DNA of 64,000 nt from a virus: IMG/VR virus record IMGVR_UViG_3300005263_000012, positions 25,431 to 89,430 of that record; one strand, written 5' to 3'. Shown here piece by piece: positions 599 to 47,330 of the stretch; position 1 is the stretch's first letter, and every line of letters starts with the position of its first letter. A program made the position numbers and the translations under genes. The notes under the pieces were generated by a model. It saw only the letters and a program-made list of their open reading frames with translations. It had not been told where the DNA came from and searched no databases.

Positions 599-847
599 TT
601 AAGCCCCGAGCATACACTTAATCATTTCTTGTTCTTTCTTCCATGCCTGATATTCAGCATCTTCCTTCTGCACACATTCCCCGCAGATGATCTTTCCATG
701 ATTCTGTATAGCCTTCCTTGCAGAGTCTTCGCCTAGTGGTCTGCCACATTTGCAAAACCATGAATAGACTGGTTTTGATTCGGTGAGAGTTCGAGAAAAG
801 CGAACTTCTTCGGTTGTGGTTATGGGGGGCGGGAGTTCAGCAGACAT
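599..847 (-). CDS. Small Zn-finger hypothetical protein
   Basis: CKCG...CGEC; abuts neighbouring ORFs. Confidence 0.55.
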   Translation of the reverse strand: MSAELPPPITTTEEVRFSRTLTESKPVYSWFCKCGRPLGEDSARKAIQNHGKIICGECVQKEDAEYQAWKKEQEMIKCMLGA

Positions 848-1042
848 TTAAACCCCCTTATCAATTTCTTCAACTATCAATCCAGCAGGTACAGTATACA
901 CAATTGCGTCACGTCCATCGATCAACGCATAACCTGTACTGGTTTCACGGATGTAACGAGCTTCTTTTACTTCGATAAGTAGCTTATCTCCGAATAGTGA
1001 GCCAGGTTCAGTTGATATGATACTGATTTTAAATTTTGCCAT
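848..1042 (-). CDS. Hypothetical protein
   Basis: ORF track; tightly packed in minus-strand operon. Confidence 0.55.
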   Translation of the reverse strand: MAKFKISIISTEPGSLFGDKLLIEVKEARYIRETSTGYALIDGRDAIVYTVPAGLIVEEIDKGV

Positions 1043-1045
1043 GAT

Positions 1046-1240
1046 TTATCCCTTCTTTTCAGCCATTCGTTCCTCTAAAGTTTTCTCCGGCAACACTTCC
1101 TTTGTGATCGATAACACATTTTCAGGAATGTAGATCTCATTAACTAAGTCAAAAAATTTAGTCATGATGTGAGTTACACGCTGTTCGACTATTACGGCAG
1201 CGTTGTCTGTGTCAATTTCTATAGTGTATTTGCATCTCAC
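1046..1240 (-). CDS. Hypothetical protein
   Basis: ORF track; tight operon spacing. Confidence 0.5.
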   Translation of the reverse strand: MRCKYTIEIDTDNAAVIVEQRVTHIMTKFFDLVNEIYIPENVLSITKEVLPEKTLEERMAEKKG

Positions 1241-1243
1241 GTT

Positions 1244-1534
1244 TTAGTTCTCCTGTTCTTCATTTCTTGCTTTAATTCCGGCTTCCGTAATTACCCAATA
1301 ATATGCCTTTTCCTTCCTCTTTTCAATTCGCTGAACAAGTCCTTCTTTCTGAAGATCCTGTAAGGTTTCATTAAACCATTTCAGGGTTGCTTTTTCATAT
1401 TCTGGAAATTTTACTACAAGATCTTCTTTGATTAATGAGGTTTTTAGCTCATCATTAGATAAAACTGTCAATATTTTCAATGGATCGTATTTTTTAGGGA
1501 ATCTGTGAGGTTTCCCTGATTTGTTCGATTTCAC
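1244..1534 (-). CDS. Winged-helix DNA-binding protein
   Basis: TLQDLQKEGLVQR...YYWVITEAG is a typical wHTH recognition helix plus wing. Confidence 0.65.
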   Translation of the reverse strand: MKSNKSGKPHRFPKKYDPLKILTVLSNDELKTSLIKEDLVVKFPEYEKATLKWFNETLQDLQKEGLVQRIEKRKEKAYYWVITEAGIKARNEEQEN

Positions 1535-1538
1535 AGTT

Positions 1539-1838
1539 TCACTCCTTTACCTTTTCAAGGAAATCTTGATTTAACGAGTGCTCAAATTGTGGGAAGTCGT
1601 CAATGTGTACAACAATAATTGTTTTATATACTTTCCCAGATGGATCTGAATAACTCAATCCAGTTGCGTAATCTGTACGCTGTTCTCTTAACTCTTCAAC
1701 ATGGCAGTCTGTGACTTTACCTCTTCTATATAATGGAAAATCATTATGTCCAAATAATTTGTTATGATCTTCAGCCATCAGCCTATATTTCTCGTTTGTC
1801 TCTACTTCATCGCCAATCCGAAATTTCGATACTACCAT
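1539..1838 (-). CDS. Hypothetical protein (SH3/KOW-like start)
   Basis: FRIGDEVET start; first gene after the divergent promoter at about 1850-1930. Confidence 0.55.
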   Translation of the reverse strand: MVVSKFRIGDEVETNEKYRLMAEDHNKLFGHNDFPLYRRGKVTDCHVEELREQRTDYATGLSYSDPSGKVYKTIIVVHIDDFPQFEHSLNQDFLEKVKE

Positions 1839-2115
1839 TCTATAATCACATCCTTTTCGTGTATTCTCCTATATGAAATACAAACTATATAAATCTTGTG
1901 TTGGTTGCAACTTACACATACATTTAAATACTACTTCTGCGTATATATGAGTATGTCAAGGGCATAAGCTGCCATGAAGAAAAGGAGATAATAAAATGTA
2001 TATTGTGAAATCAATAGAAAAGTTTGAGACTTTCGAAGATGCTGTTTATTTTTTGATGAGCCACATTGCTGAAGCTGGTGTCGATGAAGATTTTGAGGTC
2101 GTGGAGGTATAATAA

Positions 2116-44415: not shown

Positions 44416-45339
44416 TCATGCTTCCATCTCCTCTGCCGAAACTTCCCCTGCTGCTATCATATCAGAAATAGCTCTATTCTTAGCTCTTGTGTGACATGTA
44501 GTATACACATCGTGTTCAGGATGAGTGAACTTCTTTTCAGTAGAGGTACATATGGCTACACCTTCTGTTTTTCTCCCATTTGGTGCAGTGCACAAGACTT
44601 TCATTTTCCATTGAAAAGCTCCGTTTTCTAGCACATCTCTCGTTTCTTCAACGATCTGATCCGTTAGGTTGTAAAAAGTAGCAAACTTTCTCCATCCAGA
44701 TTTCTTAACGTGGTTCTTTCCATTTATTTTCTGGATGTCAGAAGCCTCAATGATGTAATTTTTAAGTTGCTGGAATTCTTGCCAGGCAGCCAACGCTTCA
44801 GCGGCAGTTACAGCGGGCCTTACTATACCACCTACACCAATTGGAGCGGGGAGCTGTGCAGGTTCAAAGGTTGGATTCACATTTTCCACTCGATCAGTGC
44901 GTTCTCTCCGTGTGACAGGTTGTTTAGTTTTTGGTTCTGGCCCTCGGATCTCTCCATTTTCCAGAGCTTCAAGTATTCTCTTTTTCTCTTCCAGATCATC
45001 AACAACTTCAGCATTAACAGATTCAACAGTTTCAGTATCCATATTTTTCAACCTCTTTAACACATTTCCACATTCCTCTTCATACTTTCCAAAAAGTTTT
45101 CTTGCATCCCCCGCATATGTAAAAGGAACCTTTGACGATTCAATATCATAAGTCTCAGTTGAGGTTCCATCATTAAACTGAAAATACCATGAGCGGCTTA
45201 TCGACGCAAAAAGAGTGTATCCTTTCCCGCAACTCATAGTATATGTAGCGGGATCGTCGGGAACTTCTTTTAAGTTGTATTCTTTTGAGAAGCTACGGAG
45301 AATGTCAAGTTTTTGAGCTTCTGTGAGTTCCGTATTCAC
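44416..45339 (-). CDS. Putative single-strand annealing protein/recombinase
   Basis: C-terminal KKSGWRK...C..PNGR..EG...C...E...H...T.TRA.NRAISD..GEVSAEE domain seen in viral SSAP-like proteins; replication-arm context. Confidence 0.55.
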   Translation of the reverse strand: MNTELTEAQKLDILRSFSKEYNLKEVPDDPATYTMSCGKGYTLFASISRSWYFQFNDGTSTETYDIESSKVPFTYAGDARKLFGKYEEECGNVLKRLKNMDTETVESVNAEVVDDLEEKKRILEALENGEIRGPEPKTKQPVTRRERTDRVENVNPTFEPAQLPAPIGVGGIVRPAVTAAEALAAWQEFQQLKNYIIEASDIQKINGKNHVKKSGWRKFATFYNLTDQIVEETRDVLENGAFQWKMKVLCTAPNGRKTEGVAICTSTEKKFTHPEHDVYTTCHTRAKNRAISDMIAAGEVSAEEMEA

Positions 45340-46318: not shown

Positions 46319-46379
46319 ACTTCACTCCTCTGAAAAATCCGTTTTAACAAGCTCACATTTTTATATTATTAATGAGCAA

Positions 46380-46451
46380 ACTCCTATGAGGATTCGAACC
46401 TCAGCCTCCAGAGCCAAAATCTGGAATCATTGACCGCTAGACGATAGGAGT
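46380..46451 (-). tRNA. trnQ: tRNA-Gln(UUG), no encoded CCA
   Basis: ACTCCTA TC GTC-TAGCGGTCAAT-GAT T CCAGA-TT[TTG]GC-TCTGG AGGC TGAGG-TTCGAAT-CCTCA TAGGAGT; full cloverleaf; A1:U72 pair as in archaeal tRNA-Gln. Confidence 0.92.
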
Positions 46452-46466
46452 AATAGGCTTATAGTA

Positions 46467-46495
46467 GGGCTCTAATTGTTCGTGGATTAGAGCCC
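46467..46495. other. 10-bp hairpin upstream of the tRNA
   Basis: GGGCTCTAAT-9 nt-ATTAGAGCCC. Confidence 0.8.
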
Positions 46496-46497
46496 AT

Positions 46498-46561
46498 CCG
46501 TTTTTACGTAGTCTAAAATCCCGTTTTTCCACGTAATTTTTTAAAACCCGTTTTTTACGTA
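46498..46561. repeat. Three imperfect direct repeats CCGTTTTT(N0-2)ACGTA
   Basis: Copies at 46498-46510, 46521-46535 and 46548-46561, separated by 10-12 nt. Confidence 0.8.
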
Positions 46562-46580
46562 ACTTTCCCTTTGTGGGAAT

Positions 46581-46640
46581 TAGCCGGAGTCTGATTCGAA
46601 CAGACATTCTCTTTCGAGCGATTACTTATCTTATCCCGCT
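46581..46640 (-). ncRNA. 60-nt anticodon-less mini-cloverleaf tRNA-like element
   Basis: AGCGGGA TAA GAT-AAGTA-ATC G CTC-GAAA-GAG AAT GTCTG-TTCGAAT-CAGAC TCCGGCT A. Confidence 0.6.
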
Positions 46641-46744
46641 GTGTTGACCCCGGAAGATCGGGGAGTTCAACAACGATCTAGTGTTCTTTCGCACGGTCTG
46701 AAATATAGGTCTGAAATTAACGTTTTTAAGGGCGTTATCCCAAA

Positions 46745-46873
46745 AGCCACGTGAGGGACTTGAACCCTCATCAACCGGGAAGAGATTGGTTTCACAGGTT
46801 CGGACTATATGGGAATTCTTAGGGGATGTTACAGTGGGCGATATTATGGCTGATTCATCCTTCTTGTCGTGGC
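46745..46873 (-). ncRNA. tRNA-like acceptor/T-arm stack enclosing a 97-nt insert
   Basis: GCCACG ...97 nt... TGAGGG-TTCAAGT-CCCTCA CGTGGC T (6+6 bp). Confidence 0.45.
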
Positions 46874-46951
46874 GCTTGTGGGCATTATTTCAAATGCCCT
46901 TTTCGGAGGTTTGATATTTGACAGAGTTTTTCTACGAGAGGTGGTTCATGT

Positions 46952-46987
46952 TGGAGCCGTCCATAAGAATTGAACCCACTAGACGGC
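46952..46987 (-). ncRNA. 36-nt tRNA minihelix with encoded CCA
   Basis: GCCGTCT A GTGGG-TTCAATT-CTTAT GGACGGC T CCA; starts 1 nt after the stop codon of 46989..47330. Confidence 0.6.
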
Positions 46988-46988
46988 A

Positions 46989-47330
46989 TTACGCTATGAT
47001 ATACTCAGTTTTCCTCGCAATTTCAATATGAGGGATATACCCGCACGATTCGCAGAACACCCTACTCAATATGAAAAGGTAGTTCTCATCGAGCTTTTGA
47101 TATTCAGAGAAATCGTCAATATGACTCTGACAATTCTCACTAAGTTCAGCGATAAAAACCGGCCAAATCTCCCCTAAATCTTCTCTGCGGTGAACATCTT
47201 CCAATACGTCATCGTGCCAACGGCGAACTTCATTTACCTGTTCAATAGGGCCTATGTAATTCACCCCAGCTTCTTCACACAGGAAGACTCTGACTTGATT
47301 AGGGGACTTTGCTACAAACTGAACTCTCAT
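46989..47330 (-). CDS. Hypothetical protein with C-terminal CxxC
   Basis: ATG directly after the upstream stop; FCESCG. Confidence 0.6.
   Translation of the reverse strand: MRVQFVAKSPNQVRVFLCEEAGVNYIGPIEQVNEVRRWHDDVLEDVHRREDLGEIWPVFIAELSENCQSHIDDFSEYQKLDENYLFILSRVFCESCGYIPHIEIARKTEYIIA

Follow-up and report, generated by a model that had tools for sequence, protein, structure and literature searches.

The question raised by this locus is what the bare top half of a tRNA, an acceptor stem joined to a T arm, is doing among the genes of a virus. The stretch of DNA analysed here (64,000 nucleotides, hereafter the window) comes from an IMG/VR virus record of 101.7 kb that is rated complete, and its minus strand carries, at 46987..46952, a tRNA top-half mimic made up of a 7-bp acceptor-like stem, a bulged A and a 5-bp T stem. 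Read 5' to 3', the element consists of a 7-nt strand, A, a 5-nt strand, TTCAATT, a 5-nt partner, a 7-nt partner, T and CCA, which gives 33 nt for the bare hairpin and 36 nt with CCA; the T loop is UUCAAUU, N73 is U and in the window copy CCA is encoded after N73. One nucleotide alone separates the 5' strand of the acceptor from the T stem, leaving no D or anticodon arm. The preliminary description had given the geometry as a 7-bp acceptor, a T stem of 5 bp that includes three G-U pairs, a discriminator and CCA, and the sequence agrees: all 12 pairs are standard, the T stem having three G-U pairs and the acceptor stem a fourth. Its placement directly behind a stop codon is also correct, since the TAA of the ORF at 46989..47330 occupies 46991..46989 and is followed by one T (46988) and then by the element at 46987. 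The element has the features of a tRNA top half (a 7-bp acceptor on a 5-bp T stem, G53-C61 and U54-U55-C56-R57-A58) and shares with t-elements a non-decoding tRNA-like fold with an acceptor stem and a T arm.

Folded alone, the minihelix has a predicted energy of -15.7 kcal/mol (z = -4.2), a value equalled by none of 200 shuffles, and it is kept in both the MFE and the centroid structures of a 141-nt context fold. The optimum for the window copy is, however, a shifted register, with 8 bp outside and 3 bp inside, and the tRNA register is worse by 2.2 kcal/mol. Of four homologues folded for comparison, three (L016, L102 and L096) have the tRNA register as their MFE. ARAGORN made no call on the minihelix, relaxed settings included, and Rfam returned no match at E <= 10.

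Copies of the element were sought with an architecture scan that demanded the T loop, the T stem, a linker of 0-2 nt and 7/7 acceptor pairs across ~1.2 Mb of genome and related contigs. Matches were returned from the window, L016 (a contig also present as L080), L083, L102 and L087/L088, together with one weak and probably chance match; Markov-simulated sequence gave a chance expectation of ~1.6 matches per 1.19 Mb, both strands counted. The true matches share one strand and one syntenic ORF-free gap and come from independent lineages. The minihelix thus exceeds chance and is neither a chance hairpin nor a one-off. The copy in L096, which has 10/12 pairs, was located via synteny rather than by the pairing scan; it demonstrates, together with the conserved flanks, positional homology of the copies. 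A covariance model (R1) built from five copies scored family members at 55-64 bits, the next best match in 684 kb searched reaching 16 bits, and recovered L102, which stood outside the training set. Four independent sequence versions can be distinguished (the window; L016/L083/L102; L096; L087/L088), among which the stem sequence is nearly all different and the geometry common. In each case the surrounding genes form a co-directional string with the copy on their coding strand, and the copy occupies a gap of 0.5-0.9 kb, free of ORFs, that precedes a conserved gene for a 307-aa protein. Beyond this set, megablast against phages found no close DNA relatives, the exact 36-mer is absent from IMG/VR, pattern searches with the second array element and the 3' half of the tRNA-Gln returned contigs already in the set and no others, and a single metagenome scan yielded two contigs, one of them identical to L008.

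Alignment of the copies (A2) shows pairing kept in 95% of cells and both sides changed in 9 of the 12 pairs, although three copies were first picked by a scan that demands pairing, an ascertainment bias that inflates the pairing figures. None of 500 shuffles reached the observed pairing and covariation values, and sliding the partner by 1-3 columns reduced pairing to 28-60%. The alignment contains 11 G-U cells, which on the opposite strand would give A-C mismatches; this strand asymmetry argues for a minus-strand RNA and against a DNA-level palindrome. The tRNA-Gln and the flanking genes are on the minus strand as well. Taken together, these comparisons indicate that selection preserves the RNA structure of the minihelix within a small clade of tailed viruses whose hosts are methanogenic archaea, probably Methanosarcinales.

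The alignment also separates what is fixed from what is free. Invariant are U(-1), the single inter-stem A, G52, G53, C61, U54-U55-C56-A57-A58, U60, C72 and C74, as is the geometry of 7+5 bp with a T loop of UUCAAnU and a G53-C61 pair, and what varies is every acceptor pair and the discriminator (U, U, A, G, G). The invariant U(-1) belongs to a UAAU leader (46988..46991, minus strand) of which columns 1, 2 and 4 of A2 are invariant. Leaders of this type lie far from any stop codon in L016, L083, L096 and L102, and the TAA stop of the window coincides with bases one to three of this leader. The stop-codon adjacency that the preliminary description had treated as a feature is peculiar to the window; in L016, L096 and L102 the element stands ~170 nt behind the last ORF. 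The encoded CCA that had been singled out fares no better: N73 is followed by CCA in two of six versions, the window and L096 only, by CAA in L016, L083 and L102, by CAG in L087 and by TCA in L008, and the other three tRNA-like genes of the window encode no CCA. Nor does the minihelix stand alone as a gene, for an array begins with it as its first module.

This array is, in the window, an ORF-free stretch of 537 nt (46452..46988) that is opened by the minihelix and has a tRNA-Gln as its last member. Spacer 1 (46874..46951, minus strand), a candidate for a released small RNA, separates the minihelix from the second member (46745..46873, minus strand), in which an acceptor-like stem and a T arm (12 stacked bp) enclose ~97 nt of C/A-rich RNA. 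The acceptor stems of this second member covary among the window, L096, L016/L102, L085 and L008; internal folds of the larger members are not convincingly conserved among the few sequences compared. A third member (46581..46640, minus strand) has 6/7 acceptor pairs and a perfect T arm and lacks an anticodon arm; it was not recovered in the relatives and is reported as context only. The tRNA-Gln(UUG) itself (46379..46451, minus strand) was called by ARAGORN and scored 56 bits with Rfam, and has an A1-U72 pair and no encoded CCA. The first element of the array is 33 nt long in the window, L016, L083, L102, L096 and L087/L088, ~63 nt in L085, where it carries one small inserted hairpin, and ~100 nt in L093 and in L008/L082, the latter having the leader and the discriminator of the window and a near-identical acceptor. 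The top half is constant throughout these lengths, the homology of L008, which MAFFT could not align, resting on the common leader, the acceptor sequence and the position.

At the other end of the array, the D arm of the terminal tRNA-Gln of L016 and L096 is truncated and its anticodon stem is unconvincing; neither ARAGORN nor Rfam calls this tRNA, which retains the 7-bp acceptor stem and the T arm. This reduction to a top half indicates selection on top halves rather than on decoding. The degenerate genes lie at L016:4930-4995 (minus strand) and L096:3100-3165, and the loop of the latter has CAU in place of UUG. Two kinds of element recur around the terminal tRNA. Hairpins are found just before the terminal tRNA, a 10-bp one in the window (46495..46467, minus strand, 15 nt upstream of the tRNA-Gln) and others of different sequence at the same place in L008, L016, L084, L093, L096 and L102. 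Short motifs are found as well: in the window, ACGU(A/G)(A/G)AAAACGG(G/A) occurs three times upstream of the tRNA-Gln (46560..46497, minus strand) and one AAAACGGAUUUUU right after it, and GAAAAACG(G/U)-like motifs flank the terminal tRNA in L008, L016, L085, L087, L093, L096 and L102. The ACGU-type and GAAAAACG(G/U) motifs may serve as binding places for a regulator or belong to a promoter or a terminator.

The spacers have a content of their own. Spacer 1 of the window contains ACCUCU (46942..46937), ACCUCC (46910..46905) and a 7-bp hairpin (46899..46880), all on the minus strand, and this layout of motif plus hairpin recurs in L016, L102, L096 and L087. On the sense strand of nine arrays CCTCC is enriched ~5-fold (23 observed in 5.3 kb against ~4 expected), a count that includes several close relatives and so overstates independence. 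A segment containing CCUCC, usually with a small hairpin, adjoins a tRNA-like element in 9/9 arrays examined. ACCUCC and ACCUCU, whose sequence is identical to that of the anti-Shine-Dalgarno end of 16S rRNA and behind which UA..AGAAAA and a small hairpin often come, were seen beside the tRNA-like elements in the arrays of the window, L016, L102, L096, L087, L093, L084, L085 and L008.

Several other descriptions of the region were tried and rejected. Among known large RNAs, GOLLD, ROOL, tmRNA, Y-RNA-like RNAs and group I introns were considered for the whole stretch of ~540 nt; no Rfam family matches any part of the arrays (E <= 10 or E <= 1, in the window or in five relatives). An intron-containing, split or permuted tRNA was discarded, as the intron mode of ARAGORN gave nothing sensible and the acceptor strands are contiguous with the T arm. 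A small antisense ORF, read from an ATG at 46948 of the plus strand behind a GAGGTG, was dropped because L016 does not conserve it. In L083 the array has taken up an insertion of 1.57 kb with its ends kept, which argues against a single rigid RNA. Relative to L016 this insertion spans L083:427-1996 and is a mobile element inside a viral non-coding RNA locus; its ORF (675..2000) encodes a 441-aa protein with RRXRR and HNH, an IscB-like OMEGA nuclease, and the ~250 nt of non-coding sequence upstream of that ORF are a possible guide RNA. On the other side of the minihelix, L016 (5500-5665, minus strand), L096 (2450-2610) and L102 (1490-1650) share ~170 nt of conserved non-coding sequence with a hairpin of 11-12 bp that ends 10 nt before N1, at the place where the window has a protein-coding gene.

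The 113-aa ORF at 46989..47330 (minus strand) lies upstream of the array, is co-directional with it and has no Pfam or PHROG match and no relative in IMG/VR. The 307-aa gene that served as the synteny anchor (44416..45339, minus strand) is conserved downstream of the array and has more than 400 metagenome homologues, in some of which a RecT domain is fused to the N-terminal half (P0009, Pfam RecT 1e-36); the 307-aa protein of the window itself gave no RecT match. Genes for a terminase of T4 type, a portal and a Mu-F-like protein are found just downstream. Among isolates, the terminase is matched best by a virus assigned to Methanomicrobiales (41% identity), homologues of the 307-aa gene bear the names Methanosarcinales and Methanolobus, and the A1-U72 pair of the tRNA-Gln is the archaeal (GatDE) signature. 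On these grounds the source is likely a tailed virus of Methanosarcinales-type methanogens.

The geometry, the T loop and U(-1) are fixed and the acceptor and N73 are free, as one would expect if the substrate is recognised by enzymes through its tRNA shape. The reading that we favor, and one with natural precedents, is therefore that of a minimal t-element. The minihelix would punctuate a non-coding transcript and, in the manner of a t-element, offer RNase P, tRNase Z and the CCA-adding enzyme a handle, a proposal to which we assign a probability of roughly one half. From the observed structure, strand, conservation, covariation and array context, we infer transcription, cleavages and purpose as follows. 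A minus-strand transcript would carry the minihelix as the first module of a non-coding array of ~540 nt ending in the tRNA-Gln, host RNase P would cut between U(-1) and N1, and the 3' end would be finished by tRNase Z or by trimming and then by the CCA-adding enzyme. The minihelix would in this way part the message or leader before it from the neighboring spacer RNA with CCUCC, which is a plausible beneficiary of the processing, and a hairpin RNA of 33-36 nt would be released as a product or by-product. Cleavage by RNase P at G1 is plausible in view of the fixed U(-1), the 12-bp stack and the canonical T loop. For RNase P, tRNase Z (RNase Z) and the CCA-adding enzyme alike, the T loop or elbow is the point from which the distance to the acceptor end is measured (PMC4810234). 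The minihelix always lies in a co-directional gene string and adjoins either an mRNA end or a conserved CCUCC-bearing spacer, with which it may be co-transcribed.

Precedents for the proposed handle come from several systems. Signals of this tRNA-like kind in plant mitochondria were reportedly described by Hanic-Joyce in 1990. The t-elements of these mitochondria define mRNA ends via RNase P and RNase Z (PMC1920247, Forner 2007; PMC11658184, Ceriotti 2024) and are CCA-tailed, base-modified and not aminoacylated (PMC1920247, PMC11658184). For Haloferax volcanii, the citing passage in PMC4326828 places a t-element upstream of the 5S rRNA (Holzle 2008), and a crRNA with a t-element on either side is released in vivo through RNase P and tRNase Z (PMC4326828). 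Like the minihelix, t-elements are tRNA-derived and non-decoding and keep the acceptor stem and the T arm; they sit inside longer transcripts beside other RNAs, as is predicted for the minihelix. They differ in being degenerate cloverleafs of ~60-75 nt, whereas the minihelix is a bare top half of 33 nt with a single bulged A; the minihelix, moreover, is viral, belongs to an array of three or four mimics and covaries across divergent viruses. The processing of t-elements is demonstrated, that of the minihelix predicted.

Other tRNA-like RNAs are more distant. Laboratory tRNA minihelices consisting of an acceptor stem and a T arm, reportedly described by Francklyn and Schimmel in 1989, have the architecture and size found here (~35 nt with CCA), and RNase P, CCA-adding enzymes and certain synthetases take them as substrates. 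They were built from a specific tRNA with its identity set (e.g., G3:U70) and join positions 7 and 49 directly, whereas the viral minihelix has no conserved identity set and a conserved extra A at that junction. Anticodon-less phage look-alikes of the T4 species 1 RNA type are likewise viral, non-decoding and found beside real tRNA genes; they retain most of the tRNA body (70-140 nt) and belong to bacteriophages, in contrast to the far smaller minihelix of archaeal viruses. The tRNA-like domain of tmRNA and mascRNA (MALAT1) also use an acceptor stem and a T arm as a tRNA-enzyme handle on a transcript that is not a tRNA. The former depends on G3:U70, on alanylation and on SmpB, and mascRNA forms a complete cloverleaf; the minihelix has neither that feature set nor the cloverleaf. 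A tmRNA tRNA-like domain was rejected because ARAGORN found no tmRNA, G3:U70 is missing and the host is archaeal by relatives; tmRNA is not known from archaea. Mimicry of the mascRNA type is mentioned in a review of the tRNA elbow (PMC4810234).

Several points stand against the processing reading. The lineages that carry the minihelix number only four, three of them first picked up by the pairing scan. A T loop without a D loop cannot form the full elbow, and the weak T stem of the window copy, with its three G-U pairs, counts against a processing handle, as does the greater predicted stability of its shifted register. Acceptance of a bare minihelix by archaeal tRNase Z is uncertain from the work on Haloferax, and an encoded CCA, as in the window, is expected to inhibit this enzyme. 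With three other tRNA-like elements within 540 nt, finally, a fourth cutting mark is not obviously needed.

The alternative that retains most weight after the processing reading, though we think it unlikely on balance, places the function in the hairpin itself. The released, CCA-tailed RNA would be a stable decoy or sponge for a host factor that recognises the acceptor ends or the T arms of tRNAs: a defence nuclease or 3'-end-modifying toxin directed at tRNA, for example, or the CCA-adding enzyme, or an enzyme that modifies T loops. That a minimal form with an invariant bulged A and T loop has been kept in four lineages despite nearby cutting marks speaks for such a role, as does the persistence of arrays without any working decoder. 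No partner gene or defence context was identified in support of a decoy, and with the acceptor sequence and N73 free a sequence-specific binder is unlikely. A decoy role of the predicted hairpin RNA is compatible with the processing reading and partly nested in it.

A wider proposal, doubtful and put forward as speculation, sees the locus as a viral small-RNA factory in which the top-half cassette would hijack RNase P, tRNase Z and the CCA-adding enzyme and release trans-acting CCUCC-rich RNAs together with the 36-nt minihelix. The CCUCC-rich, anti-Shine-Dalgarno-like RNAs and the CCA-tailed minihelix would then target host translation or a tRNA-directed defence.

The position of the window copy, 1 nt past a stop codon, and its stable stem-loop would suit a hairpin at the mRNA 3' end of the 113-aa gene, acting as a terminator or as a block to exonucleases and resembling a tRNA only incidentally. 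We consider this improbable. In no lineage does a T-run follow the stem, the downstream bases being CCAACATG, CAAACCTC, CAGATCC or CCAATGT in different lineages; in L016, L096 and L102 the nearest ORF is ~170 nt away and the element stands behind another conserved hairpin; and a conserved T-loop sequence and 7+5 geometry are unneeded for a simple block.

Quite improbable, too, is a neutral remnant, that is, a decaying and functionless tRNA gene whose D and anticodon arms were lost through deletion. The neighborhood of tRNA genes, the weak T stem in the window and the loss of the lower half from the tRNA-Gln copies of relatives are what this explanation would lead one to expect. A remnant would lose pairing, whereas here the lengths and the T-loop residues are invariant, and compensatory double changes in 9/12 pairs with 95% pairing are found among lineages whose flanks can barely be aligned.

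The preliminary description had also raised aminoacylation, and a CCA-ended minihelix charged by host synthetases might be imagined as a non-ribosomal carrier of amino acids or as a decoy for translation factors. Laboratory minihelices can be charged, N73-CCA is encoded in the window and in L096, and three versions have U73, the main acceptor-end determinant for CysRS on minihelices. The pattern of variation makes charging very improbable all the same: the acceptor pairs vary freely, with neither pairs 1-72 to 3-70 nor N73 (U, U, A, G, G) conserved; pair 3-70 is C-G, G-C or A-U across versions, so that the G3:U70 of AlaRS is missing, as is G(-1) for HisRS; and four of the six versions lack CCA, which could be added post-transcriptionally in all lineages. 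The best-studied natural analogues, the plant t-elements, are CCA-tailed yet uncharged (PMC11658184). The minihelix does not decode, and it probably does not accept amino acids.

An attP-type integration site, in which a captured piece of a host tRNA gene would be used by an integrase, has parallels in the tRNA-like attP sequences of archaeal viruses such as halovirus HF2 (PMC8707807) and is scarcely credible here, as the complete 101.7-kb record has no PF00589 integrase, the 21-mer from T loop to acceptor has no exact match in 185,579 species genomes, the model gives two weak, non-minihelix matches, none convincing, in 151 host-related genomes (the family of the Methanolobus genome that carries a related provirus gene), and the 5' acceptor strand, not required of an att core, is present and covarying.

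We therefore return to the processing handle and to what the element may mean. Our literature search found no natural element consisting only of an acceptor stem and a T arm in archaeal or bacterial viruses and no description of structured non-coding RNAs in methanogen viruses. We read the minihelix as the most reduced form of a tRNA mimicry that resembles that of t-elements, here carried by viruses of archaea. Minihelices are central to ideas on tRNA evolution, which hold the top half to be the older module, and to enzyme studies of RNase P, synthetases and the enzymes that add CCA; nearly all of this work uses synthetic molecules, and here selection keeps a bare top half in nature, with a pattern of fixed and free positions that resembles the footprint of enzymes touching it. 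If the small-RNA factory were true, this would be the first natural, conserved and free-standing viral tRNA minihelix RNA with a function of its own. If the processing idea is true, the element would be a natural counterpart of the Haloferax t-element trick for making defined small RNAs and may offer compact processing handles for Methanosarcina genetics. For the viruses of methanogens, a thinly documented area, the locus represents a conserved multi-module RNA region.
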